In this document: one piece after another, positions 5,589 through 64,000 of the stretch
Layout: every line of letters starts with the position of its first letter
Numbering within the stretch: position 1 is the stretch's first letter
NCBI GenBank assembly: GCA_016861085.1
Contig: BOKR01000001.1
Coordinates: forward strand, 451,271 to 515,270
DNA from: Patescibacteria group bacterium
GTDB taxonomy: Bacteria; Patescibacteriota; Microgenomatia; UBA1400; PJMF01
DNA: 64,000 bases
Direction: 5' to 3'
Program-made: the position numbers and the translations under genes
Notes under the pieces: model-generated
Databases searched by the model: none
What the model saw: only the letters and a program-made list of their open reading frames with translations
What the model was told of the DNA's origin: nothing

Positions 5589-5653
5589 ATATTCCTTTTA
5601 TGTTCAGATACTATACTACCAGTATTTTGTGTTTTGGGGAATTTTTCTTGAAG

Positions 5654-16664: not shown

Positions 16665-16704
16665 GTGTAGTAATCCTCATCAATCATAGAGGTTTTTTGA
16701 GGGA

Positions 16705-32889: not shown

Positions 32890-32898
32890 AGTTGTAGT

Positions 32899-33471: not shown

Positions 33472-33515
33472 GAATCTCAGTATAACATTTGGGTAAGTTT
33501 TGGGAAGAGAGATTC

Positions 33516-43235: not shown

Positions 43236-43244
43236 GTAAATCTT

Positions 43245-44972: not shown

Positions 44973-45600
44973 AGTTCATTGGTATCTCTGACTCATAAGT
45001 TGTGTTTTGCTCCTGTGTAGGAAGTACTGTTGGTTCTGGCTCTACTGGAATTTCCTCTACTGTTTCAGGAAGTAATTCCATATTTGTAGCTTCACTAATA
45101 AACAAAGTATTCGTTTCTTGATTATATTCACCTGTTGCAAATATTCTTCTACCTATCAATTTTTCCAAATCTACGTTTTCCAAAACAGTAATATTAATGG
45201 CTTCAGCTGAGCTTGTGAGTAAATAGAATTTTGCTGTTTTTTTTGAAAATTGAAGTGTGCCAGTAAAAGCTGTTTCTCTTAAAGGGCTAATAGATGGCAA
45301 AGGAGTTTGTTTTACTGTAGGTTGATAGTGAATAAACGGCTTTTGTTTCGAAATAGTAAATTGTCCTACTCCAAAACCCAGCGTTGCAACAACTGCAGTG
45401 ATTGCAATTGCAGTGAGTGGATGAATTTTAAAGTGAAAATCGACCCCTTCTTTACTCATAACCTTTTTCCACCAGTTTTTGAGATAAGTAATAGGGTTCG
45501 CTATCTGTAGGTTAATAAAAGGTGGTTCTTTTTTTCTGAAGTCGGGTTTGACTTCACTCACTTCAACAAACGAATTTTTCTCTTTATTCATATTGCTCAT
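44965..45600 (-). CDS. Hypothetical single-pass membrane protein
   Basis: 211 aa with one TM (LTAIAITAVVATLGFGVGQF). It overlaps both neighbours by 8 and 4 nt, so it is translationally coupled. Confidence 0.45.
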   Translation of the reverse strand: MSNMNKEKNSFVEVSEVKPDFRKKEPPFINLQIANPITYLKNWWKKVMSKEGVDFHFKIHPLTAIAITAVVATLGFGVGQFTISKQKPFIHYQPTVKQTPLPSISPLRETAFTGTLQFSKKTAKFYLLTSSAEAINITVLENVDLEKLIGRRIFATGEYNQETNTLFISEATNMELLPETVEEIPVEPEPTVLPTQEQNTTYESEIPMNYE

Positions 45601-47306: not shown

Positions 47307-48924
47307 GCAGTTCTAATTTGTAAATATTACAAAGGTTATAACAACCAGAATGGACTTGCTTTAACTGAAACTTTTCAGAAATTGTTTTATAAGATTTCTG
47401 AAAAGAGTCAGAAGCATTTATTCTATAGTTTGTGACATATAAGTTATCACCATTAGTAATTTTTGTTTTGTAGAGTTCCAATAAATTTATGTAGTTGTTA
47501 CTCCCCCAGACTTCTTTCATATTCCCGTTAAAGTCTTGTTTCTCATTTAATGGCAATGTTGTATACGTATTATTTGAATAATTGTCCGTAAAAAATGGTG
47601 CATCTAGTGTGACTAGTATAGGTTTGGTGTCTGTTTCTTTTAAATTGTCAAAATAACTATTAAGTTCATTTTGGGCAAGGTAGTTCCATGGAGTTTCATT
47701 ATATTTCAGGTTTACCATGATTACTGATTTCAATCTAGTAAAATTTGTTACTGCGTATATTAAAAGTAAAGTAGATAGGAATGAGAAAAATAGTATTTTA
47801 TCTTTAAATAAGGTAGCATAGAGGTGTTGTAGAAAAAAACCAAAGCCGAGTAACAAAATTGGCAAAAGGTGGTACAAATAGCGAATATCAACTACGTAGA
47901 AGGTGGACATAAAGAGCAGTTGAACTATCACTGCTATAATAAGCCATACTTTTGCATAGATAAATTGCTTTTTTCTTAAATTAATAAGTAGTCCAAAGAT
48001 TCCTGGAAGAGCTATCCACCTTTCAGTAAGGGGTGTATTGTCCCATAAAAATCTTTGAGATTTTCCAACAAGCGCATGTGAGTATTCTCCAATATTTTTG
48101 GTAAAATAATTGATTGAAAAGTAACTATTTCCAGAAGTAACAGTGGTAGAGCTGTTTTTATCTAACGATCCATTTGAAACCTCATTTAGTACACCTATGA
48201 GCTCCACAACACCAACTAGTTTACCAAGTATAAGTGCTCCGGGTATAGCTGCAGAAAGTATCAGGCGAGATCTTTCTTTTAAAGATTTGTTTTCATTCCA
48301 GACCTTGAGTATATAGAGTATTGGGAAAGTCACCGTGAGTGGTGCGTAGGCATATTTTGTCGCGTAGAAACCTGCCGCTAAAACACCTGCAAACACACTT
48401 GTTGTTATGGAGAGTTTTTTTTGTTGTAAGATCAGGATACTCAACAAAAATAATGGAACAAGTAGATTCTCTGCCATTGCGAGGGTTGGGTACCAGTAAG
48501 AGAAGTAGTTTGTTACGTATAAGAAAAGAATAAATGTAGTAATATACTTATTTTTGAAAAAATTTTGACTAATTTTATACAAAAGTAAGAGTGAAAATAG
48601 TGCTAACAGTATGTTTATAAAATAAAACGTTCTAACGTCATTATTAATGAGGTAACCTATTGCTAATGTGAAAGGATATGCTGGTGGGACTTCAGCTTTT
48701 ATTCCTTCAATACTTTGATCGCTTAATCTACACATTCTCCATTCACCATTTTTTAGAAAGCACCTTGGTATGGTTGTGTAATAAAGAGCGTCTGGAAATG
48801 GCTCTAAATTCGGGATTAATGTGCGAGTTGAGTACGGGTTTCTGAAAAGTAAAACACAAAAGATACAAAACACTGTAGCAATTAAAAAGTGAGATTTTAA
48901 AAGTTGTAAAATTTTTTTCTTCAT
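47296..48924 (-). CDS. Polytopic membrane protein, putative GT-C-fold glycosyltransferase
   Basis: 542 aa with at least 10 TM helices plus a C-terminal soluble domain. It overlaps the previous gene by 11 nt. Confidence 0.4.
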   Translation of the reverse strand: MKKKILQLLKSHFLIATVFCIFCVLLFRNPYSTRTLIPNLEPFPDALYYTTIPRCFLKNGEWRMCRLSDQSIEGIKAEVPPAYPFTLAIGYLINNDVRTFYFINILLALFSLLLLYKISQNFFKNKYITTFILFLYVTNYFSYWYPTLAMAENLLVPLFLLSILILQQKKLSITTSVFAGVLAAGFYATKYAYAPLTVTFPILYILKVWNENKSLKERSRLILSAAIPGALILGKLVGVVELIGVLNEVSNGSLDKNSSTTVTSGNSYFSINYFTKNIGEYSHALVGKSQRFLWDNTPLTERWIALPGIFGLLINLRKKQFIYAKVWLIIAVIVQLLFMSTFYVVDIRYLYHLLPILLLGFGFFLQHLYATLFKDKILFFSFLSTLLLIYAVTNFTRLKSVIMVNLKYNETPWNYLAQNELNSYFDNLKETDTKPILVTLDAPFFTDNYSNNTYTTLPLNEKQDFNGNMKEVWGSNNYINLLELYKTKITNGDNLYVTNYRINASDSFQKSYKTISEKFQLKQVHSGCYNLCNIYKLELHDK

Positions 48925-52020: not shown

Positions 52021-54123
52021 ATGAGTAATAATCTAGTATACAACATACAACAAGTGATGAAAAAATTTCTTTTTAGCTATTTTTGTTTTTGTTTTTGTTT
52101 TTTTACTTTTTTTGCTTCGGGATTTGTAGATTCTCAAGATGGGTTCCTATATTTAACTATCGCAAGAAGGATGTATTATGACAAAACGTTTGAAATGCCA
52201 GTTGAATCTTTCCCAGAAGAAAATATCCACATGAGTACGATGAAGGCAAAAGATGGAAAAATATATAGTCCAACAGGACTAGGCTATTCTCTCTCACTTT
52301 TACCAGCAGTTTTATTGGAAGATGTATTTTTACGTTTAAGTGATACAGAACCTATTTCAGCATTTCCACTAAGAAATGACTGGCCAGTATTATTATTTGC
52401 TAGCATGACCAATTCTTTTTGGGCTGCTCTTTTAGTGGTTACTTTTTATCTTTTTCTTAGAGAACTTTCGGTAGAACATAAGCCTGCAATTTTTCTTAGT
52501 TTTATTTTGACTGTAGCAACTAATTTATTTGTATACGCAAAACATTCTTTTGCTCACATGATGTTTACAAGTGTGTTATTTTTAACTTTTTTATGTATCA
52601 AAAAATCTAGTAAGTCAAAGCACGTATATTTTATGTTGCTTGCGGGATTTGCATATAGTATTGTAGTAATTTCTTATAATCCAACATACCTTTTTCCAAT
52701 CCCAGCAATTGGAATTTACTATCTTTTTACTCATAAAATTAACTTTTCTCTTTTTAAAGTAAAGGAGTTATTGAATAATTTATTCTTTGCTCTTGTTGGG
52801 GCTCTACCAATTATAACTTTATATGCATGGTTCAATAGTATTAGATTTGGTGATGCCATAAGTACTGGTTACGGGACAAGCGGTATAGAAATTCCACAGT
52901 TTCCCCCAATATACGTTATTATTGAAGGTTTTTGGGGACTACTTGTAAGTCCAGGAAAAAGTATATTTTTATTTTCACCAATCCTATTAATTATAATTTT
53001 ATTTTGGTTTCACTTGAAGAAAAAGATTTATCCTGAATTACTGGCTGGGTTAGCACTTTTTTTTGTATACCTTTGGTATATAGGGACTCTACTTGGTGGA
53101 GTCGATTTTTTGCTTTGGCATGGTGACTCTAGCTGGGGTCCAAGGTATATGTTACCAACCTTACCATTACTACTTCTACTTGTTGGATATATTTTTACGA
53201 AACTAACTAAAAGACAAAAAATCTTAGTTTTTTTTCCGCTGCTACTGTTTGGATTATATGTTAACCTCTTGGGTATTTTATTACCATATCAGATTAGATT
53301 TGCTGGTTTACAAACCAATGTTCATCTTAATGGTAGAGAATTTAATATGCATGAATATGGAAACGAAATTCCTAGATATTCCCCAATATTCAAGCAATCA
53401 AAAACGCTATTCCAGAGATTAGGAAAGTTAGACCAGTTGTTTGATCACGGGACATATAATTTACGACTTGTTGACGGTTTTGATTATCCGTTTGATATCG
53501 GATGGTCAGTTTGGAGAGGAATGCAGCCGTCTTCAGTTTTTTTATTCAACTCAAAAAAGGATCAAGGACCAAGGAAGCTTAGCTTAAAGCTAAAAAATCA
53601 CCAAATTGATCCTGTAAGTACCAAGTCAGCAACACTAAAATTTATCATAAATGGTCAAGAGGTCAAGAACGGTCAAAATTTTCTTATACCTACTGAACAA
53701 GAAAAAGAGTTTAATTTTGATCTTTCAGAGTATAAGTTGCTGGAAAAAAATAATGAGATGCTGATCCATTTGAGTTTTGAAAGTACGGCAGCAGCCTACT
53801 TAAAAGGAAAACAAGTACTATTTTTACAGTCACTCAGTTTCGATGATATTCACCAAAATATTCGAACAATTGATTATCCATATGTATCTGAAGTCTCGAA
53901 AAATCTTTTTGATGCTGAATATACTTTTTGGGGGAAGATACAAACTAACCCTTGGGAAATTTGGCACATGCACTCAGGGGTTTATGAACAGACGTTTGAT
54001 TTGTGGTGGTTGCGACCATTCCACTACTGGGATTACCCTAAAAACTTTTTCATTAGCTTATTTATTCTAGACTTTTCTGCTATCATATATTTTGGGTATC
54101 GAACGCTATGTTACAAACATTAA
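52021..54123 (+). CDS. Polytopic membrane protein, putative GT-C-fold glycosyltransferase with a large extracytoplasmic C-terminal domain
   Basis: 700 aa. The N-terminal loop FVDSQDGFLYLTIARRMY is GT-C-like with an acidic motif. It has at least 11 TM helices and a soluble C-terminal domain of about 250 aa. A (TTTTTG)n repeat plus T7 tracts lie at codons 22-30. Confidence 0.4.
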   Translation: MSNNLVYNIQQVMKKFLFSYFCFCFCFFTFFASGFVDSQDGFLYLTIARRMYYDKTFEMPVESFPEENIHMSTMKAKDGKIYSPTGLGYSLSLLPAVLLEDVFLRLSDTEPISAFPLRNDWPVLLFASMTNSFWAALLVVTFYLFLRELSVEHKPAIFLSFILTVATNLFVYAKHSFAHMMFTSVLFLTFLCIKKSSKSKHVYFMLLAGFAYSIVVISYNPTYLFPIPAIGIYYLFTHKINFSLFKVKELLNNLFFALVGALPIITLYAWFNSIRFGDAISTGYGTSGIEIPQFPPIYVIIEGFWGLLVSPGKSIFLFSPILLIIILFWFHLKKKIYPELLAGLALFFVYLWYIGTLLGGVDFLLWHGDSSWGPRYMLPTLPLLLLLVGYIFTKLTKRQKILVFFPLLLFGLYVNLLGILLPYQIRFAGLQTNVHLNGREFNMHEYGNEIPRYSPIFKQSKTLFQRLGKLDQLFDHGTYNLRLVDGFDYPFDIGWSVWRGMQPSSVFLFNSKKDQGPRKLSLKLKNHQIDPVSTKSATLKFIINGQEVKNGQNFLIPTEQEKEFNFDLSEYKLLEKNNEMLIHLSFESTAAAYLKGKQVLFLQSLSFDDIHQNIRTIDYPYVSEVSKNLFDAEYTFWGKIQTNPWEIWHMHSGVYEQTFDLWWLRPFHYWDYPKNFFISLFILDFSAIIYFGYRTLCYKH

Positions 54124-54887
54124 TGCTACCACTGGTTTCACACAAGTACCTTTTGTTACAGCTCATACAAAGGGAGATTAAGGCAAGGTACAAACAATCA
54201 ATCATTGGTTATTTTTGGGTTATTTTGAATCCTTTGTCTCAAATGTTAGTGTATACATTTGTTTTTAGTATTGTTTTTAAGTTTCCAACAAGTGTTCCAT
54301 ACCCGTTATTCTTGTTTGCAGCCTTGCTTCCTTGGACGCTATTGCAAGGAACTATAACAACAGCTACAAATAGTCTGGTCTATAATGATATTTTGCTTAA
54401 AAAGGTAGCTTTCCCAAGAGAAATTATTCCATACTCTGTGATAGCTGCAAAAACGATTGATTTTGTTTTCTCGTCACTCATTTTTGTTTTTTTGATGTTT
54501 TTATATAAAGTTCCTTTTTTACCTACAACACTTCTATTTTTCCCATTGTTTTTTGTACAAATAATTTTGATTGCGGGTATTTCATTATGTTTATCCGCAT
54601 TTAACTTATTTTATAGAGACATTCAGTATCTTACGAACTTAGTGTTGATGATTTGGATGTATATAACACCAGTAGTATATCCTCTGGCATTAGTTCCGAA
54701 AGAATTTTTACAGTTATATAAATTGAATCCAATGGTTGGAATCATTGAAGGGTATCGAGCGGTTTTGTTCGGTGAGAGGTTTGACCTTGACTCATTTCTT
54801 TGGTCTGCTATTGTCTCAGTTATACTCTTTGTTGTTGGTTTTTTGATTTTTAAAAGATTAGAAAAAACTTTTGCAGATATTGTATAA
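54108..54887 (+). CDS. wzm: ABC-2 type polysaccharide/teichoic-acid exporter permease
   Basis: 259 aa with six TM helices. It has the ABC-2 family layout with YRDIQYL in the loop before TM5, and is followed by the cognate ATPase. Confidence 0.8.
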   Translation: MLQTLMLPLVSHKYLLLQLIQREIKARYKQSIIGYFWVILNPLSQMLVYTFVFSIVFKFPTSVPYPLFLFAALLPWTLLQGTITTATNSLVYNDILLKKVAFPREIIPYSVIAAKTIDFVFSSLIFVFLMFLYKVPFLPTTLLFFPLFFVQIILIAGISLCLSAFNLFYRDIQYLTNLVLMIWMYITPVVYPLALVPKEFLQLYKLNPMVGIIEGYRAVLFGERFDLDSFLWSAIVSVILFVVGFLIFKRLEKTFADIV

Positions 54888-54895
54888 AAAAAGCT

Positions 54896-55627
54896 ATGAG
54901 CAACCTACCACACATTTTACTATCAAATGTAACTAAGAAGTTTATGTTACAAGGTGACAGAACTTTTAAAGAACTTCTTCCTAGTTTGATTAAAGGAAAC
55001 TCTTGGGCTCAAGAACTGCAAGCGCTTAAGAAAGTTAATTTAGAAATTCAGTCTGGTGAGACTGTCGGAATTGTTGGGCATAATGGAGCTGGTAAGTCAA
55101 CCCTTATGAAACTAATTGCAGGAGTTACATACCCAACAACTGGTGAAATTTCAGTTCAGGGAAGAGTTGCCCCGTTGATTGAGCTTGGAGCAGGGTTTCA
55201 TTATGAGTTGAATGGGTACGAAAATATTTATTTAAATGGTGCAATACTAGGCATGCACAAAGAGAAGATTGAGTCAGAAAAAGAAAACATAATAAAGTTT
55301 AGTGGTATTAAAAAATTCTTACATGAGCCTTTGAAGCGTTTTTCTACTGGTATGGTTATGCGTTTAGCTTTCTCCATAGCAGTACATGCCCATGCGCAGA
55401 TTTACCTTATTGATGAGGTTCTGGCTGTGGGAGACTCTGAGTTTCAGCAGCAATGTTTAGAGAAGTTAAATGAGATAAAAAGAGAAAAAGATAAAATTGT
55501 TGTTTTTATTAGTCATGATGAACAAGCAGTTCAGCATTTTTGTGAAAGAGTTGTTGTTTTAGATACTGGCAAAGTGATATACGATGGAGGTGTCAAAAAC
55601 GCTTTCGATGTATACCATCGAAAATAA
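54896..55627 (+). CDS. wzt: ABC exporter ATP-binding protein (Wzt/TagH/KpsT-like, without a C-terminal glycan-binding domain)
   Basis: 243 aa with Walker A GHNGAGKSTLMK, the signature FSTGMVMRLAF, and Walker B IYLIDEVLAVGD. Confidence 0.85.
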   Translation: MSNLPHILLSNVTKKFMLQGDRTFKELLPSLIKGNSWAQELQALKKVNLEIQSGETVGIVGHNGAGKSTLMKLIAGVTYPTTGEISVQGRVAPLIELGAGFHYELNGYENIYLNGAILGMHKEKIESEKENIIKFSGIKKFLHEPLKRFSTGMVMRLAFSIAVHAHAQIYLIDEVLAVGDSEFQQQCLEKLNEIKREKDKIVVFISHDEQAVQHFCERVVVLDTGKVIYDGGVKNAFDVYHRK

Positions 55628-55632: not shown

Positions 55633-56766
55633 TTACTTTTCGTCCCAAATGTTATCTTTTTCCCATTCACGTTTGGAATTCAGTCTCCAGACTCTTGGGT
55701 CACGAAAACTGTTAGCTACTTGCCAAAATTCTTTTTCTTTCATACCAACGTAGTCTAGCCAATACTTCAGGTCACTTGGGACTACGTGGTCGTATTTTTT
55801 GACCATTTCGATCCCCTTTTCTCTAGTCATTAATCCACTGCGGATATCTTTTGAAGCATGATCAGAACCCCTTCCGTAACCGAATTTTATATATTTGAGG
55901 TAATCATGTAATCCGTTTTCATATCTATCATCTAAGTTGGACATTTTACGATAGGTTCTTTCGAATGGTTGAACAGCTTCTTTCCAACCGTATTTCTTTT
56001 GGACAAGTTTTGTATGTTTATATGGTTCCCATTTGAAAAAGTTTCCGATGTACAATCCTCTTACCCCAACTTTCAGAATTTCTTCGTCGGTAGGATATTT
56101 TGTCCATAGAAGGTCTTTTTCTGTTAAAGGTTCTTTTTCATCATTAATCAAGTTGTACCATTCATAACCCCTCAAGCCATGTTCATGACGTACACGAGCA
56201 CTGAATTCAACATAGTCTTCTGGCTCAAACATTCCTGATATGTCCCATACTATTTCACCCCATATAATAAGGGGAATATTAAATTTAACTGCAATTTGAA
56301 CCGGATAAGTAAAAATTCCGCAGTGACCATGCCAGTTCATATCGCCCATTTTTCTGAAACAGAGCCTATTGAGTTTTTTAAGCACCTCAACACTTGGTCC
56401 AAATACAATATGATCTGCGTCAAAATTATGTCTCATTCTGTCTCGATTGTAATCGCCTTCTGGTAGGTAATTGTTTCCATGATAGGTAACTAGGAGAGGT
56501 TTGAGACCATACTCTTTTGCCATGATATGAGCTTGATAGTAGCTGTCCTTTCCACCACTAACAGGTATGATACAGTCATAGTTTGAAGTGTTGTTTCTTA
56601 ATGTTTCTTCAATAATTCTTTCAAATCTCTTTTTTCTTTTATCCCAGAATTCCGGAGTAAGTTTATCCATTTTTTCTGCAACTCTACAACTAGAACATAT
56701 GCCGTCTTTATCAATTCCAAGATTAACTGCAACTTCTGGATATACACAACGTTTACAATATTTCAT
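55633..56766 (-). CDS. N-acetyl sugar amidotransferase (WbuX/WbpG/PseA-like PP-loop ATPase)
   Basis: 377 aa. It has the N-terminal Cys motif CKRC...CSSC and a PP-loop PVSGGKDS, and is co-located with HisH/HisF paralogs. Confidence 0.75.
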   Translation of the reverse strand: MKYCKRCVYPEVAVNLGIDKDGICSSCRVAEKMDKLTPEFWDKRKKRFERIIEETLRNNTSNYDCIIPVSGGKDSYYQAHIMAKEYGLKPLLVTYHGNNYLPEGDYNRDRMRHNFDADHIVFGPSVEVLKKLNRLCFRKMGDMNWHGHCGIFTYPVQIAVKFNIPLIIWGEIVWDISGMFEPEDYVEFSARVRHEHGLRGYEWYNLINDEKEPLTEKDLLWTKYPTDEEILKVGVRGLYIGNFFKWEPYKHTKLVQKKYGWKEAVQPFERTYRKMSNLDDRYENGLHDYLKYIKFGYGRGSDHASKDIRSGLMTREKGIEMVKKYDHVVPSDLKYWLDYVGMKEKEFWQVANSFRDPRVWRLNSKREWEKDNIWDEK

Positions 56767-57581
56767 AATGTTTCATCAATTCCTAACAAATTTGGTGGAC
56801 GAACCTTATAATTATTATCATATAAATACTTTTTTGCAAGATAAACACTTTGGTCAATATGATGGAAGACATTGGCAGCTGCAACAGCATCTACTGCACT
56901 TTCATCAAATGCTTCAGCAAAGTCAAACCATTCTCCAGCTCCACCACAAGCAATTACAGGTATTTTTACTGCCTGAGAAACTTCCTGTAATAATGGTATC
57001 TCATATCCATTTTTCTTACCATCTCTATCAACTGAGTTCAAGAGTATTTCTCCTGCCCCACATTCTTCGGCAATCTTTGCCCACTCTTTTGCTCCATATT
57101 TTGTAATTTCACTGCCTGAATTTTTCATTACGATGTATGAATCATCGATTTTTTTAACATCAATGGAAACAACTACGCATTGTGAACCAAACTGTTTAGC
57201 TGCTTGTGTAATGAACTTTTTATCTTCAAGTGGTTTAGTATTAATAGAAATTTTGTCAGCACCTCTTGAGAGTCGATCTTCTATATCTTTCAAAGTTCTA
57301 ATTTTTCCTCCAATTGTAATAGGCATAAATGTTCTTTTTGACACATCATCAAGAATCTCAAAAATCGTATGACGGTTTGGATTATGTAAGTCTTCTCTTC
57401 TCATGTCATAGTTTTCATCTGTAGATATATCCAAGTAAATCAACTCATCAGATGCCCATTGACTCAATCTCTTTACGGCAGTGATTGGGTTTCCAAGGTT
57501 TTGGTACTCTGAAAATCCTTTGCTTTGCACGAGCCAGCCATTTCTCAGTAGAAGTACGGGGATGAGACGTTTCTTTTTCAT
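56763..57581 (-). CDS. Imidazole glycerol phosphate synthase cyclase-subunit paralog (HisF-like, WbuZ-type) dedicated to sugar amidination
   Basis: 272 aa with LIPVLLLRNGWLVQSKGF...LDIS and GADKISINT, the HisF (βα)8 barrel signatures. It overlaps its neighbours by 4 nt. Confidence 0.75.
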   Translation of the reverse strand: MKKKRLIPVLLLRNGWLVQSKGFSEYQNLGNPITAVKRLSQWASDELIYLDISTDENYDMRREDLHNPNRHTIFEILDDVSKRTFMPITIGGKIRTLKDIEDRLSRGADKISINTKPLEDKKFITQAAKQFGSQCVVVSIDVKKIDDSYIVMKNSGSEITKYGAKEWAKIAEECGAGEILLNSVDRDGKKNGYEIPLLQEVSQAVKIPVIACGGAGEWFDFAEAFDESAVDAVAAANVFHHIDQSVYLAKKYLYDNNYKVRPPNLLGIDETL

Positions 57582-58189
57582 ATCCTCAAAAAGTTTTCAA
57601 GTAATATTTTTCCTGTTTGTTGGCTTTTCTCTGGGTGGAATTGCACACCATAAATATTATCTTTTTGGAGTATTGAGCAAAAATCAGTTCCATAGTTTGT
57701 ATGTGCAACTACTACCTCCTCATTTTTTGGTTCAAAACAAAAGCTGTGGACAAAATAAAAGTCGGAATTTTGAGGTAAATGCTTTGTTAATACTGATTCT
57801 TTTACAACTTCAATATTATTCCATCCAACATGTGGGAGGGGTAGTGAATCAACTGAAAGAACTTTGACTACTCCTGGTATCCATCCCAAACCTTTGTGTA
57901 TACCGAATTCATGTCCTGTATCTGCTAAAACTTGCATGCCAACGCAAATACCAAGAAATGGTTTTTTTTGATTAAAGACTGCTGTCTTTAAAAGTTCTAG
58001 AGGAATATTTTTTTGTATTTTTTTCATTGAAGAACCAAATGCCCCAACCCCTGGAAGTATGAGGTGCGTTGCGTCGATAATATCTTTTGGTTCGTTGGAT
58101 ATCACAACTTGTTTTTCAATGAGGGAGACAATATTGAAAACAGATCTTACATTACCTGATCCATAATCTAGTATGCAGATTTTTTTCAT
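57578..58189 (-). CDS. Glutamine amidotransferase, HisH paralog (WbuY-type)
   Basis: 203 aa with a class I GATase triad context (GICVGMQ and FHPEKS). Confidence 0.8.
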   Translation of the reverse strand: MKKICILDYGSGNVRSVFNIVSLIEKQVVISNEPKDIIDATHLILPGVGAFGSSMKKIQKNIPLELLKTAVFNQKKPFLGICVGMQVLADTGHEFGIHKGLGWIPGVVKVLSVDSLPLPHVGWNNIEVVKESVLTKHLPQNSDFYFVHSFCFEPKNEEVVVAHTNYGTDFCSILQKDNIYGVQFHPEKSQQTGKILLENFLRI

Positions 58190-59670
58190 ATTTCTTTGAT
58201 TATAGCATTGGCCATAGTATCAATTAATAGATTTCTTGGTTGGGGTGATAATGCTGCTAACTCTGGTGATGTAGCTGTGTTGATAAATTTTTTCTTATAG
58301 TACAAAAGGTATCTTAAGACTTCTTCAAGCACTGTTGTTTTTTTTATATTGCTTATCATTTTTAAAGCTTCTTTACATTCATTTTGAGAGGTCACAATGT
58401 AACAGGCATTACAAGGACTATACCAAGCTGAAGCACTAAAGGTAAGCACTGGTTTACCCATAATAAGCGACTCCCAGCCACTACTACCAGTTAATGTAAC
58501 AGTACACTGAGAATGTTTGATGAGATCCTGAGAGCTAGTATCTAGTGAAACTAATCTAATATTTTTATATTGATTGATTTTTTCGTAAAATTCTTTAGTT
58601 CTAAAGTTCATCTTTCTAGTATCAGTCCTTGAGAACTGGTTTGGATGTTCTTTCACATACAACAACCAACCAGTGGGAAGAGATTTTGAAAGTATATCTA
58701 TTGCTAATAGCTGATTCTCAAAAATGTCACCTTCTGGCATGCTAGTTCTTTCTGGCTGAAAGTGTAGTGCAAAGTAGACAAATTTTTTGTTAACTTGCAC
58801 TTGCTTTGCTGTTTTATTATAAAAATTAAATAATGCTTTGTTTTTGAAATAGTATTGGAATATCATTAAATAGTATCCAAACCAGTTTGTTGGTTTTTCC
58901 ATGTATGTAGGACTAAAATAAACTCTTTCGAATGGATTATGAATGAGAGAAAACAGTGCTTTGATGGTTGGAATATCGATAATTGCTTTAAAAAAACTGG
59001 AATTATTTTGTTTTGTAGCTGTCTTATTATCTTGAATGTTAATTTTCATTAAGATGCTTTGCTGAAAGATCTGCGAAAACTGTCTTTCTCCAAGCTTCAT
59101 TTTTAATTCTTTAAAGTTGTTGTCAGAGAGGTATGTTGAAGGAATTTTTTTAAAGTTATTGTAATCATTAGTGATAAGGGCTGTATCATCAAGCAAAGTT
59201 TCTCTCACGATAATACATTTAATATTGAGCTGTTTTGCTAAAGCAAGCACAATATTTCCGTATCCAAGGTGTGGAACTCTTGGAAAAATAATCCTTTTTA
59301 TTTTCTCTTTTTCTAGAAAGTGCTTCCAAAATAAGAGGAGTTCATAGTATTGCTGTTTTCTGAATTGAACTGTTTTTGGATAAAAACAAGTTCTATCTGT
59401 AATGCTTAAGTATAAGCTTTCGAGCTCAAAGTTCTGGTAAATGGTCTTTTTTGATAAGCTTTTTGGGTTATTCTTATTGATTCCATTTATTTTATCTGCA
59501 AAGTGAAATTGTTTTTCATCTATGATTTTTATGTTTGAAAATTCTTTTTTATTTCTATAAAGATCAGGAAAAGTTGTAACAATGTGGGTGATTGGGCAGT
59601 CTTTTTTTACAAGCGCTTCTACCACATCCCTGTAATAGTTATCGTTAAATTCAAGGAGCAATATGCTCAT
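58186..59670 (-). CDS. Capsule-polysaccharide biosynthesis family protein (Capsule_synth, KpsC/KpsS/LpsZ-like ulosonic-acid transferase)
   Basis: 494 aa. LLYVKEHPNQ...(about 40 aa)...VTLTGSSGWESLIMGKPVLTFSASAWY resembles the HP motif and C-terminal block of KpsC/KpsS. It is assigned from memory of the motif only. Confidence 0.35.
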   Translation of the reverse strand: MSILLLEFNDNYYRDVVEALVKKDCPITHIVTTFPDLYRNKKEFSNIKIIDEKQFHFADKINGINKNNPKSLSKKTIYQNFELESLYLSITDRTCFYPKTVQFRKQQYYELLLFWKHFLEKEKIKRIIFPRVPHLGYGNIVLALAKQLNIKCIIVRETLLDDTALITNDYNNFKKIPSTYLSDNNFKELKMKLGERQFSQIFQQSILMKINIQDNKTATKQNNSSFFKAIIDIPTIKALFSLIHNPFERVYFSPTYMEKPTNWFGYYLMIFQYYFKNKALFNFYNKTAKQVQVNKKFVYFALHFQPERTSMPEGDIFENQLLAIDILSKSLPTGWLLYVKEHPNQFSRTDTRKMNFRTKEFYEKINQYKNIRLVSLDTSSQDLIKHSQCTVTLTGSSGWESLIMGKPVLTFSASAWYSPCNACYIVTSQNECKEALKMISNIKKTTVLEEVLRYLLYYKKKFINTATSPELAALSPQPRNLLIDTMANAIIKEI

Positions 59671-59713
59671 AGTAGCTTTCTAAAAAATTTGGTAGGTGGA
59701 TACTGTGAGCTCA

Positions 59714-61123
59714 CTATTTGTTTACACAATTATAGTAAGATTCGTTTTCTAACTCTCCAAAATCACCATTTTTAATTGCTATATTTATTTCTGAGATTGC
59801 GTCAGATATTGTATGCTTTGCAGTAAACCCTAATTCTTTCTCAATTTTATCAAAAGATACTTGGTATGTTCGTTTATCAGTCACAGAGCTATTCTCTGCT
59901 TTGTGCAATTCTACTTTGGTGTTTGGTAGTACCTTTTTTACAACATCACCTATTTGTTTAATAGTAAAGTTTTGTTGGTTTGTTCCAACATTAAAAATAG
60001 TATTATCTATATTTTCAAATGACTTTTCTAAAACAGAAACATATGCTTGTGCTGCGTCAGCAACATGTAATAGTGGTCTCCATTGATCTCCACCAAAAAT
60101 ACTTATTTGTTTTTTTGTGGTTGCCATTTTGGCAAAAATATTAACAACTAAATCAAATCTCATTCTAGGAGAGTAACCATATAAAGTGCTCATTCTCATA
60201 ATGATTGGTTTAAAGTTTTCATCAGCAAGACTGAGAATAGCCTTTTCTGACTCAATTTTTGTTCGAGCATATAGAGAAACTGGGTTGAGATCAGAGCTTT
60301 CATCGAGTCTCTTTGAACCAACTCCGTATACGCTACAAGTTGAAGCAAAAATAAATTTATTGATTTGATAGTATTTACATGCTAACGCCAAAGTCATAGT
60401 TGCTAAGTAGTTAGTTGCAATAGTTTCTTGTGGGTATTTTGTACTGGCTGGATCTCCAACTATTGCAGCCAAATGAATAACAGAATCAACATTTTCAAGT
60501 GATTCATGCATTGTTTGTATATTACGGACGTCGCCTTTGATAAGCTCAAAATTAGGATCATTATATAAGTCAGAAATACTTGTGTCACCAAACTTAAGAA
60601 CATCTAGAACTCGCACAATGTAGCCTTTTTTTAAAAGTAGCCTAGATATTATTGAGCCTAAGTAACCTGCACCTCCAATGATCAAGACACGTCTAATTCC
60701 GGAATCTACGTTTGGAGTTTCTGGCTGAAAATTTAAAGAAATGTTATTTTTTGTCTGTGAATAACTCAAGATGTCGACAATTTGTTTTTTTTCGTTAATT
60801 ACTGGGATTTGTAGATAAAGAATTTGTTCGCTGATTTTTTCTTCATGTTCTTCAATATATTTAAGAACATTCTGGGTGATCTTTATTTTGCTCTGACCTT
60901 TTTTTACAGTAAGAGGACTCTTATTCATGATCTCAGCAACAGGAGCATTAATGTCAAATCCATTATTTAGAGCTCTTCTAATATCCCCTGGAGTAACAAC
61001 ACCTTTAAGAACATTGTTGTTATCTACTACAAAGACAATTCCCCAACCATTCGTATCAATTTTTTTCATGATACTTTTAGCAGCAGCATTTTTTCGGATA
61101 AAGAGTTGTTCTATGTTTTTCAT
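59714..61123 (-). CDS. CBS-pair domain fused to an NAD-dependent sugar epimerase/dehydratase (SDR)
   Basis: 469 aa. The N-terminal 130 aa form two CBS motifs. Then come the Rossmann motif RVLIIGGAGYLGSIISRLL and the catalytic YARTK. Confidence 0.75.
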   Translation of the reverse strand: MKNIEQLFIRKNAAAKSIMKKIDTNGWGIVFVVDNNNVLKGVVTPGDIRRALNNGFDINAPVAEIMNKSPLTVKKGQSKIKITQNVLKYIEEHEEKISEQILYLQIPVINEKKQIVDILSYSQTKNNISLNFQPETPNVDSGIRRVLIIGGAGYLGSIISRLLLKKGYIVRVLDVLKFGDTSISDLYNDPNFELIKGDVRNIQTMHESLENVDSVIHLAAIVGDPASTKYPQETIATNYLATMTLALACKYYQINKFIFASTCSVYGVGSKRLDESSDLNPVSLYARTKIESEKAILSLADENFKPIIMRMSTLYGYSPRMRFDLVVNIFAKMATTKKQISIFGGDQWRPLLHVADAAQAYVSVLEKSFENIDNTIFNVGTNQQNFTIKQIGDVVKKVLPNTKVELHKAENSSVTDKRTYQVSFDKIEKELGFTAKHTISDAISEINIAIKNGDFGELENESYYNCVNK

Positions 61124-61225
61124 AATGTAGCCTTGATACTACATCAGACTATATAAATTTTGCAATACATATTTCAAGTATAGCTTGTTGTAGGTGACTG
61201 TTAATCAAGTTAGCTGAGTGGTAGA

Positions 61226-62779
61226 ATGGTGAAACGAATGAATAAACTTCTTAAAAACAGTATTTACCTTTCACTATTCACTGTTATTTCTCTACCTGCT
61301 TCTTATGTAATTAGACTTATTTTATCTCAGCATCTTTCACTATCTGATTTTGGACTATTATATGCACTTATTGGTTTTTTTAGTATGGTTCAATCTTTTA
61401 ATGACCTAGGATTTTCCGAAACTCAAGCATACTTTATCCCAAAATATATTGAGCAAAAGAGAGAGGACAAGATAAAAGCTGTAGTTAAGACTCAATTATT
61501 TAATCAGTTATTCACAACATTCCTGATTGGTTTAGTTTTGGCTATATTTGCGGAATGGTTTGTTACGACAATTTTTCACTCTCCAAACGCAACTAACCTT
61601 TTTAGATTATTTATCTTAGCTTTTATTGGAAAAGATTTTTTACAAAATACAAAGATGCTTTTCTTCGCCTATCAGGAAGGAAAATTTCATGGCTCTCAAG
61701 AACCACTTCGAATCTTTTTAACACTTTTTTTACTCATCATTGGGGTAGCACTTTTTAAGGTAGATATTTTATTTGTTGTTTGGACATGGGTAATTGTGTA
61801 TGGAGTTTTAGCACTTCTTTATTTTATTTTGTTTGTGATTCGCTATAAAAAGATTTTACAAGCAAAGCATTATCCTATGAAAGAAATATATAAGGAATTT
61901 TTTCCTTTTTTGGTACCAACTTTATTAGCAAATAATGCTGGAGTCATGTTTTCTGCAGGAACAGAAATCTTCTTAGCTTATTTTAAAGGAACTGCAGATG
62001 TTGGACTATATAATATTGCTAAGCCAATTTCTAATCTAGCTTTGGCAATAACTACTCCGATAGCAAATTTGCTTAAACCACACGTTTCTCAGATAGATGA
62101 ACAAAAAAATTACGAATCAGTGGAAAAACTTATTAGTATTACAATAAATGCTGGAGTATTTTTATTACTACCATTTTCTATAACTTTAGCGTTTTACGCT
62201 AAAGAAAGTATTGTTTTTCTATTCGGAAGTAAATATGTTGCTGCTACTCAAGCACTTCAATTTATCTCTTTTGAGATCGTTCTAAATATATTAAGTCTTT
62301 TTATATTTGGCATTATTTTTGGTTTGGGTTTACAAAAAAGTAGAGCAAAAATAATCTACCTTTCTTCTGCTATAAGCTTGGTTTTTTCTCTTATTTTAAT
62401 TCCCAGATTTGCATCTGTTGGTGTAGCATTAGCAAACCTTGGATATGCGTTAACAGCAGTTATTGGTGGACTATATATCATTAGGCAGAAAATTCCTTTT
62501 TCTTTTCCTCTCTCAAACTATCTTAAGATGCTAATTCTTTCTATGATTCTTATCTTTAGTCAGGTCTTGCTTAAATTTATTTCACCTTTGGAACTTTCAC
62601 AACAGTTGTTGCTTTTTATACTTAAGGCAGCAGTTGGTCTTTCACTTTATTATGGAATCGGTATTTTTATATTTAAAATTGTTGATATTCGTTTTGTAAC
62701 TAAATTGATTTTTCCTTCGATCCCTGCTAGAGTACAAATATTAATTGCAGCCCTGAAAGGCAAACAACAGGTGTTTTGA
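61226..62779 (+). CDS. wzx: Polysaccharide biosynthesis protein / oligosaccharide flippase (MOP superfamily, Wzx-like)
   Basis: 517 aa with 12-14 predicted TM helices and Wzx-like topology. It lies between the sugar-modification genes and neuA. Confidence 0.65.
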   Translation: MVKRMNKLLKNSIYLSLFTVISLPASYVIRLILSQHLSLSDFGLLYALIGFFSMVQSFNDLGFSETQAYFIPKYIEQKREDKIKAVVKTQLFNQLFTTFLIGLVLAIFAEWFVTTIFHSPNATNLFRLFILAFIGKDFLQNTKMLFFAYQEGKFHGSQEPLRIFLTLFLLIIGVALFKVDILFVVWTWVIVYGVLALLYFILFVIRYKKILQAKHYPMKEIYKEFFPFLVPTLLANNAGVMFSAGTEIFLAYFKGTADVGLYNIAKPISNLALAITTPIANLLKPHVSQIDEQKNYESVEKLISITINAGVFLLLPFSITLAFYAKESIVFLFGSKYVAATQALQFISFEIVLNILSLFIFGIIFGLGLQKSRAKIIYLSSAISLVFSLILIPRFASVGVALANLGYALTAVIGGLYIIRQKIPFSFPLSNYLKMLILSMILIFSQVLLKFISPLELSQQLLLFILKAAVGLSLYYGIGIFIFKIVDIRFVTKLIFPSIPARVQILIAALKGKQQVF

Positions 62780-63462
62780 TGTCAAAAACAATAGCACTGA
62801 TTCCTGCTAGAGGTGGTTCACAGTCTATTCCGCGAAAAAACATTAAGTTATTGGGTAATAAACCTCTTGTTGCTTGGCCAATCGAGCTTGCTTTAAGTAT
62901 CCCTCAAATTGATAGAGTTATAGTTAGTAGTGATGATGATGAAATCATGACAATTGCTCAGAAGTATGGTGCTGAAGTTTTATTTAAACGACCTCAAGAT
63001 TTATCAGGCAGTGATGTTCCAACTTTACCGGTTTTACAACATGCGGTGAACTATTTACGTAAATCGGAGGGTTATTTTGCAGAGAACGTATTATTGCTCT
63101 ATCCTACAACACCTTTTTTGAAAAAAGAAAGAATTTTAGAAGGTATTGATTTGTTGAATGATGGAGCTGATAGTGTTATAGGAGTTAGAAAGATACGAGG
63201 CTATATATGGAAGAAAACTAAAAATAATGAAAACAAACTCATACCTTTTTATCCTCCAAAAAGAGTGAATAGACAAAAATTTGAGCACCTGTTAGAAGAA
63301 GTTGGTAATATTTACTTCATGAAAAGCTCAGTTTTAATAGAGCAAAATAGAATTGTTTCAGAGGAAAACTGCCAATTTATATTCGTAGGGCAAGATGAGA
63401 TACTTGACATAGATGAGCCGAGTGATTTTTTAGAAGCAGAAGAAAGATTAAGAAAGAATTAA
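62776..63462 (+). CDS. CMP-nonulosonic acid (N-acylneuraminate/pseudaminate) cytidylyltransferase family
   Basis: 228 aa starting IALIPARGGSQSIPRKNIKLLGNKPLVAWPIELA, the CTP_transf_3 (NeuA/PseF/KdsB-like) N-terminal signature. Confidence 0.8.
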   Translation: MMSKTIALIPARGGSQSIPRKNIKLLGNKPLVAWPIELALSIPQIDRVIVSSDDDEIMTIAQKYGAEVLFKRPQDLSGSDVPTLPVLQHAVNYLRKSEGYFAENVLLLYPTTPFLKKERILEGIDLLNDGADSVIGVRKIRGYIWKKTKNNENKLIPFYPPKRVNRQKFEHLLEEVGNIYFMKSSVLIEQNRIVSEENCQFIFVGQDEILDIDEPSDFLEAEERLRKN

Positions 63463-63463
63463 A

Positions 63464-64000
63464 ATGCAAAAGCAACAATTCATCCCTTTTTGTAGAGTTG
63501 AGTTAACCCAAGCAGAAATAACTGCTGTGACTGAGTGTTTAAGGTCTGGTTGGTTAACTATGGGAAATCAGGTTCAAAAATTTGAGCAACAGTTTGCTGA
63601 GTATGTTGGAGTCAAGTATGCCATCAGTGTTAATTCTTGTACAGCAGCTCTAGATCTTGCTTTATTAGCTCACAATATTGGTAAGGGTGATGAGGTTTTA
63701 GTTCCTTCTTTCACGTTTGTTGCTACTGCAAACGTGGTGATTCATGCAGGAGCAAAACCAGTTTTTGTTGACATTGACAAAAACACGTTAAATATCGATC
63801 TTGAAGATATAGTCAAAAAAATAACAAAAAAAACAAAGGCAATCATTGTAGTTCACTATGCCGGATTACCGGTTGAGCTCACAAAAATTAAAAAGATTGC
63901 TAAAGAACATAATTTAATTATTATTGAAGACGCTGCTCATGCTGTTGGAAGTAAATATAAAGGCAAATACGTTGGTGCACACGGAAATACAACATGTTTT
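63464..64000 (+). CDS. DegT/DnrJ/EryC1/StrS family PLP-dependent sugar aminotransferase (N-terminal part, runs off the window)
   Basis: Starts at the ATG at 63464. SGWLTMGNQVQKFEQQFAEYVGVKYAISVNSCTAALDLALLA is a DegT signature (PseC/ArnB-like). Confidence 0.85.
   Translation, partial: MQKQQFIPFCRVELTQAEITAVTECLRSGWLTMGNQVQKFEQQFAEYVGVKYAISVNSCTAALDLALLAHNIGKGDEVLVPSFTFVATANVVIHAGAKPVFVDIDKNTLNIDLEDIVKKITKKTKAIIVVHYAGLPVELTKIKKIAKEHNLIIIEDAAHAVGSKYKGKYVGAHGNTTCF

Follow-up and report, generated by a model that had tools for sequence, protein, structure and literature searches.

Genes resembling hisH and hisF lie next to a gene for a PP-loop protein in a 64-kb stretch of DNA (64,000 nucleotides, hereafter the window) from a Microgenomates-like Patescibacteria MAG with a tiny genome, which raises the question of what the three proteins do together and on which sugar they act. 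An earlier sequence-only reading had assigned this triad to the conversion of an N-acetyl into an acetamidino group on a sialic-acid-like, Kdo-like or hexuronic sugar. Overall, the observed family memberships, motifs, gene coupling and synteny are best explained by operons for the synthesis, activation, amidation and attachment of a 5,7-diamino nonulosonic acid of pseudaminic/legionaminic type, a reading that we consider likely.

The module consists of two divergent operons, and its eight genes are open reading frames placed and oriented exactly as previously proposed. Together with a neighboring exporter, the layout is as follows:

54108-55627, plus strand: Wzm/Wzt-like ABC exporter pair, 259 + 243 aa (ABC2_membrane, ABC_tran)
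55633-56766, minus strand: WbuX/PseA-type N-acetyl sugar amidotransferase (NASAT), 377 aa (TIGR03573)
56763-57581, minus strand: HisF paralog (WbuZ/AglZ/HisF2-like), 272 aa (His_biosynth, 175 bits)
57578-58189, minus strand: HisH-type class I glutaminase subunit, 203 aa (TIGR01855)
58186-59670, minus strand: KpsC/KpsS/KpsS1-superfamily GT-B protein, 494 aa (Pfam PF05159, Capsule_synth)
59714-61123, minus strand: fusion of a CBS pair and an extended SDR (CBS-SDR), 469 aa (Pfam Epimerase 163 bits, CBS 30.8 bits)
61124-61225, no strand: divergent intergenic spacer of 102 nt between the CBS-SDR and wzx operons
61226-62779, plus strand: Wzx/MOP-family flippase-like membrane protein, 517 aa (Polysacc_synt 60.9 bits, Polysacc_synt_3 57.5 bits)
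62779-63462, plus strand: CMP-nonulosonate synthetase (PseF/NeuA-like), 227 aa from ATG (CTP_transf_3, 78.9 bits)
63464-64000, plus strand: DegT-family sugar-nucleotide C4 aminotransferase, first 179 of 382 aa (DegT_DnrJ_EryC1, 247 bits)

The minus-strand genes are transcribed in the order CBS-SDR, 494-aa protein, HisH, HisF paralog and WbuX, with 4-nt overlaps between successive genes among the last four; WbuX is translationally coupled to HisH and the HisF paralog. The spacer is presumably a shared promoter region; two promoter-like matches lie on its minus strand (61204-61177 and 61177-61148), the number of such matches in the region not being above chance. The ABC exporter pair is convergent with WbuX and scores 77.6 and 196 bits on NCBIfam galactan/teichoic-acid export models, below their cutoffs; its adjacency suggests a tie to the module. 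Searches with TIGR03573, Capsule_synth, CTP_transf_3 and DegT_DnrJ_EryC1, which the sequence-only reading had suggested as checks, matched all four families. Chance resemblance is excluded because E-values range from 1e-20 to 1e-102 and synteny is kept in 76-78 of 80 other genomes.

By its sequence, the PP-loop protein is clearly a WbuX/PseA-type N-acetyl sugar amidotransferase. Its TIGR03573 score is 342.8 bits (cutoff 203.2), and it combines a PP-loop ATP pyrophosphatase (SGGKDS at residues 70-75) with an N-terminal Cys4 zinc site, whose residues C4, C7, C24 and C27 are kept in 78-80 homologues. The score above the curated cutoff and these two motifs bear out the function originally proposed and speak against an unrelated ATP-pyrophosphatase such as one for tRNA thiolation. 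The sole PDB relative is the L. pneumophila NASAT 8WEX (E 1.3e-38). The name PseA is already public for this protein, deposited as 'flagellin modification protein, PseA' (GIK83858.1).

HisH retains an intact Cys82/His185/Glu187 triad, invariant in 76 relatives, matches Pfam GATase (77.5 bits) and would be the ammonia source of the triad. It also exceeds the TIGR01855 cutoff (223.7 versus 105.4 bits), the HisF paralog reaches 229.6 bits on the HisF model, and the public record labels the pair HisF and HisH 1, all of which would fit an ordinary imidazole glycerol phosphate synthase of histidine/purine metabolism that merely adjoins the amidotransferase. We regard this as extremely improbable. 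The HisF paralog remains below the HisF cutoff of 294.55 and scores higher on the WbuZ model (250.6 bits; AglZ/HisF2, 209.2 bits), with all three scores below the respective cutoffs. When aligned to HisF, it carries Leu in place of Asp11, the general acid of the cyclase (residue roles from PMC11350729), as do 77 of 78 relatives, the remaining one having Met. In the paralog and in all 78 relatives alike, R5, E46, K99 (here K110), D130 (here D141) and E167 (here E178), which include the ammonia-gate residues, are kept. Canonical his genes beside the pair were the finding that the sequence-only reading had named as contrary to its view, and none (hisA/B/C/D/G/I) was found in the 64-kb window. In addition, the HisF paralog gene overlaps both neighbors, WbuX among them, by 4 nt, and the trio is kept together in more than 10 phyla, with the order HisH-HisF-WbuX conserved across phyla. 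The sequence evidence supports the view that the paralog is not an imidazole glycerol phosphate cyclase; it would instead be a (beta/alpha)8 barrel that channels ammonia from HisH to WbuX, in agreement with the earlier proposal that the pair serves the amidotransferase and not histidine synthesis.

Evidence on the identity of the sugar comes from the plus-strand genes and their continuation. The CMP-synthetase, whose start at the ATG at 62779 is also called on public contigs, scores best on the NCBIfam PseF model (149.7 bits, cutoff 205.7) versus at most 51 bits on KdsB models, and NeuA enzymes are its best PDB matches. The DegT gene is cut by the window end; at full length, on the identical contig L005, its product scores 408.5 bits for PseC (cutoff 423.5) and 382 for ArnB, with ArnB as the best PDB match. 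Directly past the window end, the identical public contig encodes DegT, NeuB, GT2-like, GNAT, DUF4910 and methyltransferase proteins, and thereby supplies the NeuB/PseI-like gene that had been expected there. This NeuB/SpsE-like synthase is closest to SpsE (1VLI, 370 bits, versus 172 for PseI and 138 for NeuB), and SpsE of B. subtilis is a legionaminic acid synthase (PMC7439481). Because the synthase, the full DegT and the GNAT continue the pathway past the window, the amidated sugar is best read as a nonulosonic acid. All Pse and Leg equivalog models fall below their curated cutoffs for the cluster proteins. The biosynthetic route is incomplete as read, since the window and the 20 kb beyond it yielded no canonical 4,6-dehydratase (PseB/PglF/LegB) and no NDP-sugar hydrolase (PseG, NeuC/LegG).

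WbpG and WbuX (PMC10607449) and also MMP1081 (PMC2952790) work on hexuronic or 6-deoxy-hexosamine sugars, with ManNAc3NAmA occurring in P. aeruginosa O5 and Methanococcus and FucNAm in E. coli O145. Some 8-10 kb beyond the window lie a non-hydrolyzing WecB (369 bits, cutoff 210) and a gene resembling UDP-ManNAc dehydrogenase, and a hexuronate is therefore also made nearby. The triad might thus amidate a sugar of the ManNAc3NAmA or FucNAm kind, NeuB adjacency then reflecting a mixed glycan locus, which we consider quite improbable in view of the neighborhoods of close relatives. Among 80 genomes encoding a WbuX 60-78% identical to the window protein, HisF lies nearby in 78, HisH in 76 and DegT in 49; NeuB is found within 10 kb in 62, and PseB-like and PseG/H-like genes accompany 45 and 35, respectively. 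Moreover, the triad lies inside nonulosonate operons at loci L094 and L089 and in the window shows translational coupling to a ulosonate transferase of KpsS type, whereas a WbpB/WbpE/WbpD-type 3-amination set was not found in the regions searched. The acetamidino and nonulosonic parts of the original proposal hold, but its Kdo-like and hexuronic parts are not favored: the amidated sugar is not Kdo and is unlikely to be a hexuronate.

The CBS-SDR had been read as a CBS-epimerase. Both domains are present, yet a C4-oxidizing first enzyme is likelier than an epimerase, as the C4-dehydrogenase Cj1427 lies closest among solved structures (6VO6; end-to-end alignment, 159 bits; PMC10680097). The motif STCSVYG and residues Y285/K289 are kept throughout this widespread family, natural fusions with DegT, GNAT and CTP_transf_3 exist, and at locus L088 the protein is encoded within a synthase operon. 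The CBS-SDR would oxidize C4 of a sugar nucleotide, so feeding the aminotransferase. The triad itself is a well-known system in its sugar-synthesis setting, a real and largely ordinary finding; the one unusual aspect of the cluster is that neither a PseB/LegB dehydratase nor a PseG/NeuC hydrolase of canonical type was found, the pathway apparently being started by the CBS-SDR.

The 494-aa protein is a member of the KpsC/KpsS/KpsS1 superfamily of ulosonate transferases (PF05159, 29.9 bits versus a gathering score of 20), with the PF05159/KpsC similarity confined to the C-terminal ca. 90 residues and no match from sequence searches with the N-terminal half. It is a candidate CMP-nonulosonate transferase. 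Its small family (43 hits, chiefly Patescibacteria) has members beside modules for nonulosonate synthesis in Gottesmanbacteria, in Croceibacter and in a Pse+Leg double cluster, and PF05159 proteins in such positions are retaining nonulosonate transferases (PMC4487303, PMC12887879). The AlphaFold model (pLDDT 91.8) has a GT-B fold, for which Foldseek places UDP-GlcNAc 2-epimerases including NeuC (E 6e-8 to 2e-6) slightly above KpsC/WbbB. Along with a faint PseG match (15.7 bits) and a pathway devoid of a recognizable hydrolase, this ranking is what one might expect if the protein supplied the missing hydrolysis of the NDP-sugar, as an analogue of PseG or LegG/NeuC with water as acceptor. The true nonulosonate transferase would then be a 417-aa protein beyond the window that reaches 133 bits with the BFO_1060 model (cutoff 200); BFO_1060 is an orthologue of the nonulosonate transferases that knock-outs established in T. 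forsythia (PMC5420450). We judge this assignment unlikely: the only PDB entries recovered by the family profile are KpsC (E 1.2e-9) and WbbB (E 9e-4), both CMP-Kdo transferases, to the exclusion of PseG, NeuC and WecB, and the protein retains the HP motif characteristic of CMP-sugar transferases (VKEHP, aligned to VKVHP of KpsC). Furthermore, locus L089 encodes a homologue of the 494-aa protein alongside a NeuC-like gene and a fusion of PseG with PseH, and the Gottesmanbacteria locus contains a homologue of the 494-aa protein with none of the 417-aa protein seen in the 21.5 kb read. The PDB profile matches and module neighbors favor the KpsC/S-like transferase put forward initially.

In the pathway that we propose, the CBS-SDR would oxidize C4 of an NDP-HexNAc and might also remove its C6 hydroxyl, the DegT enzyme would aminate this position, and the GNAT encoded just past the window would acetylate the new amine. 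A further enzyme would free the sugar from the nucleotide, after which the NeuB/SpsE-like synthase would condense it with phosphoenolpyruvate and the PseF-like enzyme would form the CMP-sugar. Within the triad, HisH would hydrolyze glutamine and ammonia would pass through the HisF-like barrel, its cyclase chemistry lost, while WbuX would use ATP to activate the N-acetyl carbonyl (PP-loop chemistry, releasing AMP and PPi). Displacement of the carbonyl oxygen by ammonia would yield the positively charged acetamidino group, in keeping with the loss of this group upon deletion of the WbuX homologue MMP1081 (PMC2952790). The 494-aa KpsS1-like GT-B enzyme may then use the CMP-sugar as donor for an acceptor bound to lipid or glycan, and the product may be moved outward by Wzx or by the ABC exporter next to the module. 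We infer the substrate and the order of steps, as well as the amidated N-acetyl group (N5 or N7), the stage of amidation and contact among the three triad proteins.

The closest known systems are WbuX/WbuY/WbuZ of E. coli O145, WbpG with HisH2/HisF2 of P. aeruginosa O5 and PseA of the C. jejuni flagellin glycosylation locus, which share the same set of a PP-loop/Cys4 amidotransferase, a HisH glutaminase and a HisF paralog for forming sugar acetamidino groups (PMC10607449; NCBIfam TIGR03573/TIGR03572). Unlike these, the window triad resides in a Patescibacteria MAG, shows translational coupling to a CBS-SDR and a transferase of KpsS type, includes a HisF paralog that reaches neither equivalog cutoff (WbuZ, AglZ/HisF2), and would act on a target sugar deduced from context. 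In P. aeruginosa O5 and C. jejuni, hisH and hisF adjoin wbpG and pseA, respectively. M. maripaludis AglX/AglY/AglZ likewise employs a WbuX homologue (MMP1081) for a glycan-sugar acetamidino group (PMC2952790), and the AglZ/HisF2 model gives 209 bits with the window paralog; the archaeal target is, however, a mannuronic acid derivative of an N-glycan, in contrast to the nonulosonate context here. With L. pneumophila NASAT (8WEX), the window WbuX shares the PP-loop, Zn-Cys4 and Rossmann-like core (PMC10607449), but the 468-aa LpNASAT is distant (136 bits), whereas the window protein falls into a 377-aa clade 60-78% identical across phyla. A. baumannii KpsS1/Gtr59 (GT118) and the KpsC/KpsS/WbbB beta-Kdo transferases (GT107/GT99) have PF05159, the GT-B fold and the HP motif in common with the 494-aa protein, and its gene, like that of KpsS1/Gtr59, stands beside a nonulosonate module (PMC4487303, PMC12887879); it differs in that its sequence matches PF05159/KpsC in the C-terminal ca. 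90 residues only and in its small, chiefly patescibacterial family. The B. subtilis Sps system (SpsM/C/D/G/E/F) also uses DegT, GNAT and CTP_transf_3 enzymes and provides the closest synthase, SpsE, but it lacks an amidation triad, while SpsM- and SpsG-like genes were not found nearby here; by analogy with spsM in B. subtilis (PMC7439481), the dehydratase gene may lie elsewhere in the genome. Finally, the CBS-SDR has a catalytic domain that can be aligned from end to end with C. jejuni GDP-heptose C4-dehydrogenase Cj1427 and has T-x-S...Y-x3-K without the Asp/Glu of 4,6-dehydratases (PMC10680097), yet differs from it by an N-terminal CBS pair, a Cys instead of Asn following the catalytic Thr, and its pairing with an aminotransferase in a nonulosonate context.

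The minus-strand row of five genes near the end of the window, and the wzx, CMP-sugar synthetase and DegT genes on the plus strand next to it, were proposed in a sequence-only reading, and our open reading frame (ORF) list agrees with this layout, as do the Pfam and NCBIfam assignments:

Genes of the predicted nonulosonate module (window positions)
55633-56766, minus strand: WbuX, N-acetyl sugar amidotransferase, 377 aa (TIGR03573, 342.8 bits against a cutoff of 203.2)
56763-57581, minus strand: HisF-fold protein, 272 aa (best model WbuZ, 250.6 bits)
57578-58189, minus strand: HisH, 203 aa (TIGR01855, 223.7 bits against 105.4)
58186-59670, minus strand: 494-aa Capsule_synth protein (PF05159, 29.9 bits against a threshold of 20; weak, above threshold)
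59714-61123, minus strand: CBS-SDR, a 469-aa fusion of a CBS pair and an extended SDR (Pfam Epimerase 163 bits, CBS 30.8 bits)
61226-62779, plus strand: Wzx-like protein (Pfam/NCBIfam)
62776/62779-63462, plus strand: PseF-like cytidylyltransferase (PseF model, 149.7 bits)
63464 to window end, plus strand: DegT aminotransferase (Pfam/NCBIfam)

By their coordinates, the genes for the 494-aa protein, HisH, the HisF paralog and WbuX each overlap the next by 4 nt, the HisF paralog with both of its neighbors, and the order of the last three is the same in other genomes. A 102-nt spacer separates the divergent CBS-SDR and wzx genes. For the CMP-synthetase, a look-up in public proteins returned an exact match with the ATG start and none with the TTG start. 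A promoter scan found promoter-like matches at the shuffled expectation (23 against 23.6), and Rfam and tRNA scans of the whole window were empty. Two plus-strand antisense ORFs, 56588-57106 (172 aa) and 57481-57867 (128 aa), overlap the HisF and HisH genes; no gene is called there on the public contigs, and we treat them as chance ORFs.

Exact-protein look-ups followed by sequence comparison led to two public contigs, L005 and L006, which share 11,222 bases with the window at 100% identity. In the deposited record, a Patescibacteria group bacterium MAG with a longest contig of 1.17 Mb, the proteins carry the accessions GIK83858-GIK83862 (locus tags BroJett025_048xx), with the amidotransferase named "flagellin modification protein, PseA" and its partners HisF and "HisH 1". 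For the less conserved genes, the nearest relatives are Microgenomates, e.g., Gottesmanbacteria. Directly past the window end lies the remainder of the DegT gene (382 aa; PseC model, 408.5 bits against 423.5), followed by genes for a NeuB-family synthase (380 aa), a GT2-like protein (225 aa), a GNAT protein with weak PseH similarity, a DUF4910/M28-like protein and a methyltransferase. The sequence-only prediction of NeuB/PseI-like genes beyond the window was thus correct. The opposite strand encodes a 417-aa BFO_1060-like GT-B protein, two methyltransferases, an (alpha/alpha)6 protein, a UDP-ManNAc dehydrogenase-like protein and a non-hydrolysing WecB. On L005, the GT2-like and the 435-aa DUF4910/DUF2172/M28-like proteins (12986-15415) are translationally coupled to NeuB and GNAT, and both are also conserved in the Gottesmanbacteria locus L088. 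The 366-aa "terpene cyclase / pectate lyase-like" (alpha/alpha)6 protein (L005 19263-20363, minus strand) adjoins the WecB and UDP-ManNAc dehydrogenase genes and is common among Microgenomates (440 matches at E<1e-10).

Assignment of WbuX to the N-acetyl sugar amidotransferase (NASAT) family rests on several features. Residues 1-351 cover positions 1-343 of the 344 in TIGR03573, with a score above the curated cutoff. Both family hallmarks defined in the paper on the Legionella pneumophila NASAT 8WEX, a PP-loop SGGxDS and a tetracysteine zinc motif (PMC10607449), are present. The PP-loop (SGGKDS, residues 70-75) is kept in 79-80 of 80 homologues, and the motif CxxC...[GN]xCxxC (C4, C7, G22, C24 and C27) has its cysteines in every one of the 78 homologues whose alignment covers this part. 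The score and these two motifs speak against an unrelated ATP-pyrophosphatase, which the sequence-only reading had raised as a possible misassignment. According to our PDB comparison, 8WEX is the only solved structure of the family. Genetic support for the WbuX family comes from Methanococcus maripaludis, in which deletion of MMP1081 led to loss of the acetamidino group (PMC2952790). The glutaminase triad of HisH (Cys82/His185/Glu187) is intact and the protein passes the cutoff of TIGR01855, a model that cannot tell histidine-pathway HisH from glycan-amidation HisH. Combining the PP-loop proposal of PMC10607449 with our own reading of the HisH and HisF residues, we envisage that HisH would release ammonia from glutamine, the HisF-like barrel would serve as its conduit, and WbuX would use ATP to activate the acetamido carbonyl, whose oxygen ammonia would then displace.

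Discrimination from histidine biosynthesis comes from the HisF paralog. Its top model is WbuZ (TIGR03572, 250.6 against 299.7) despite a score below cutoff; AglZ/HisF2 (NF038364, 209.2 against 310) is likewise below cutoff, and the HisF equivalog TIGR00735 gives 229.6 against 294.55, also lower than the WbuZ score. The N-terminus aligns gap-free to HisF. Retained are R5, E46, K99 (K110) and E167 (E178), which we take to be the ammonia gate of HisF, together with D130 (D141). Position 11 is leucine, not the catalytic aspartate; in HisF, Asp11 acts as general acid of the cyclase and Asp130 as general base (PMC11350729). Across 78 HisF paralogs located beside close WbuX relatives, position 11 is Leu in 77, Met in one and Asp in none, and the other five positions are invariant. 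The window ORFs include no further his gene, so that the histidine-gene neighborhood named by the sequence-only reading as counter-evidence did not materialize.

To place the triad in its genomic context, we used 80 loci with a WbuX 60-78% identical to ours, from a scan of one genome per species that spans Patescibacteria, Pseudomonadota, Bacteroidota, Planctomycetota, Omnitrophota, Nitrospirota, Cyanobacteria and others. Within 10 kb of WbuX lie a HisF paralog (78 loci), HisH (76), a NeuB homologue (62), a DegT homologue (49) and a CMP-synthetase homologue (24), counts that are lower bounds because many loci are short contigs. PseB-like genes occur at 45 of the 80 loci, PseG/H-like genes at 35 and NeuC-like genes at none. 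Together, the neighbor counts link this WbuX clade to nonulosonates, usually with pseudaminic acid (Pse)-type clusters. WbuX identity within the clade is 60-78% over more than 10 phyla and that of the HisH partner just 41-66%, which suggests strong constraint and frequent horizontal transfer of the trio. The comparison locus L089 (a Logan SRR29307520 contig) carries two separate WbuX/HisH/HisF triads (3824-6369 and 13934-16669), one within a Pse-type and the other within a legionaminic acid (Leg)-type cluster, with WbuX proteins 32-35% identical to ours.

The nature of the sugar can be narrowed further. A Kdo-like sugar, which the sequence-only reading had allowed, is rejected: KdsB models score at most 51 bits with the PseF/NeuA-like cytidylyltransferase, against 149.7 for PseF, and a NeuB-family synthase is present. 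The triad might instead modify a hexuronate, since UDP-ManNAcA genes are located 8-10 kb away; we retain this as a minor alternative because of that proximity, but the 3-amination enzymes required for ManNAc3NAmA are absent. For the favored nonulosonic acid, Pse and Leg are both candidates. The canonical Pse set falls short (PseC 408.5 against 423.5, PseI 245.6 against 340.25, PseF 149.7 against 205.7, PseH 28 against 93.1), as does the canonical Leg set (LegB 102 against 475, LegC 272.6 against 420, NeuB_NnaB 280.3 against 399.65). In about 85 kb, comprising the window and 20 kb beyond, we found no PseB or PseG homologue, no PglF- or LegB-type dehydratase and no NeuC/LegG hydrolase; the sole Epimerase_2 gene is the non-hydrolysing WecB, and no PglD-like gene lies near the module. 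PseB, PseG/H, NeuC and PglD queries from L089 retrieved from the window and its extensions only weak SDR and WecB matches and a weak PglD-like match, a WcaF-like hexapeptide acetyltransferase at 30735-31373. We weighed a 342-aa SDR (37892-38920, plus strand) as a candidate for the missing dehydratase but ruled it out on its GTSEAYG...YDESK signature, which we take to be that of a UDP-glucuronate decarboxylase (UDP-xylose synthase)-like enzyme. The synthase is closest to Bacillus subtilis SpsE (1VLI, 370 bits, versus 172 for Campylobacter jejuni PseI and 138 for NeuB). SpsE belongs to a legionaminic acid pathway of Pse-like enzyme families, with the dehydratase gene at another locus (PMC7439481).

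The start of the pathway may involve CBS-SDR, which the sequence-only reading had labeled a CBS-epimerase. The nearest characterised relative is Cj1427, a C4-dehydrogenase that yields a 4-keto sugar nucleotide without dehydration (PMC10680097); the catalytic domain of CBS-SDR aligns with it from end to end (159 bits). The protein carries an STCSVYG motif, conserved across the family with a near-invariant Cys, and Y285-x3-K289. In 4,6-dehydratases, an acidic residue follows the catalytic Thr; CBS-SDR lacks it. This is a large family, with more than 7,800 matches at E<1e-20 among 8,000 candidates scored, and it is frequent in Patescibacteria, DPANN archaea and Omnitrophota. Some homologues are naturally fused to DegT (P0273), GNAT (P0234, P0250, P0271 and P0272) or CTP_transf_3 (P0181, P0183 and P0185). 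In the Gottesmanbacteria locus, CBS-SDR lies within an operon of CMP-synthetase, DegT and NeuB, and at the comparison loci L092 and L093, an RmlC/FdtA-like cupin and DegT come after it. A further locus, L094 (6564-14421), encodes a CBS-SDR-DegT fusion (774 aa), then HisF, HisH, a WbuX-like protein and a CMP-synthetase, and next a 736-aa NeuB-Epimerase_2 fusion along with a formyltransferase; this arrangement is a condensed version of the pathway. A paper on legionaminic acid in Halorubrum contains nothing on CBS fusions. From the Cj1427 alignment, motifs, fusions and operon context, we conclude that CBS-SDR probably supplies the 4-keto substrate for the aminotransferase and is not a free-standing epimerase. 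With no deoxygenation at C6, the nonulosonic acid formed would still bear a hydroxyl at C9. The GT2-like or DUF4910/DUF2172/M28-like protein may stand in for PseG/LegG. We consider it unlikely that all of these elements hold together, i.e., that CBS-SDR constitutes a PseB/LegB-independent nonulosonate entry, widespread in Patescibacteria and DPANN, in which C4 is oxidized and the C6 hydroxyl kept, one of these two proteins replaces PseG/LegG, and the product is an acetamidino 5,7-diamino nonulosonic acid with a C9 hydroxyl. To our knowledge, no 5,7-diamino nonulosonic acid with this hydroxyl has been reported. With its thousands of homologues and natural fusions to downstream enzymes, the family could reveal an uncharacterised first step of nonulosonate synthesis.

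Two proteins are candidates for transfer of the sugar. For the 494-aa protein, 43 homologues were found, mostly without a name, with distant ones annotated as LipB/KpsS family. Against all PDB sequences, the family profile matched only KpsC (E 1.2e-9) and WbbB (E 9e-4), and its VKEHP aligned to VKVHP of KpsC. The PF05159 match covers residues 332-418 only; the N-terminal domain gave no sequence alignment to KpsC or WbbB. Conserved positions of the protein include R93, P133-H134 and Q305-P306-E307. The confident AlphaFold model (pLDDT 91.8) has a GT-B fold, and Foldseek ranked UDP-GlcNAc 2-epimerases and KpsC/WbbB alike at low TM-scores, which leaves the two indistinguishable by fold. That the protein is instead the missing NDP-sugar hydrolase, a role compatible with the epimerase matches, appears improbable to us; Pfam threshold, GT-B fold and C-terminal HP motif are those of the Capsule_synth superfamily and point to a putative ulosonate transferase. 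Homologues have a nonulosonate module as neighbor in Gottesmanbacteria, with the same gene set, at a locus with Pse-type and Leg-type clusters, and in Croceibacter, there between the synthase and wzy. KpsS1, KpsS2 and Gtr59, PF05159 proteins beside such modules, were predicted to be retaining nonulosonate transferases, as later demonstrated for KpsS1 (GT118; PMC4487303, PMC12887879). The second candidate, the 417-aa protein beyond the window, scores 133 bits with the BFO_1060 family, below the cutoff of 200. In Tannerella forsythia, the family members Tanf_01245 and TFUB4_00887 are required for linking Pse5Am7Gra or a Leg derivative to ManNAcA (PMC5420450), an acceptor of note because UDP-ManNAcA genes adjoin the 417-aa gene. 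BLASTP between the 494-aa and 417-aa proteins detected no similarity, so they are not paralogs at the sequence level.

Elsewhere in the window, RuvB, RuvA and RuvC (31843-34046, minus strand) lie in the middle of a stretch of over 45 kb that encodes glycosyltransferases and glycan export, and the glycan region is therefore not a single uninterrupted island. The stretch 39870-48924 (minus strand) encodes a 1,121-aa Wzy_C/O-antigen-ligase-like protein with a long C-terminal extension. Three large proteins that appear to be membrane-bound come after it, as does one of 211 aa; those following the Wzy_C protein have no Pfam matches at E<=1e-4, with one assigned to DUF6311 in precomputed matches. 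A giant protein of 2,374 aa (9540-16664, minus strand), presumably a surface protein, combines numerous Kelch repeats with fibronectin type III domains.

Taken together, the module is real and its sequence-only interpretation essentially right. The predicted outcome is a Patescibacteria cell that displays a nonulosonic acid whose acetamidino group puts a positive charge beside the carboxylate, a feature that would bear on the surface these episymbionts present to hosts and phages. A literature search for nonulosonic acids in Patescibacteria returned nothing, and among the papers listed by one for the candidate phyla radiation, none names that group. Three aspects rise above routine annotation. 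Leucine at HisF position 11 combined with retention of the ammonia-gate residues offers a clean and simple sequence rule to separate glycan-amidation HisF from true HisF. The public HisF/HisH names are misleading, as these genes of a reduced genome are not evidence for histidine biosynthesis. Finally, the pathway apparently starts in a non-canonical manner via the uncharacterised CBS-SDR family. The system as such is known and routinely annotated: a Sphingomonas polysaccharide cluster, for instance, has these three families annotated as well (PMC11340318), and the amidotransferase is already called PseA in the public record. What is unusual is the host.
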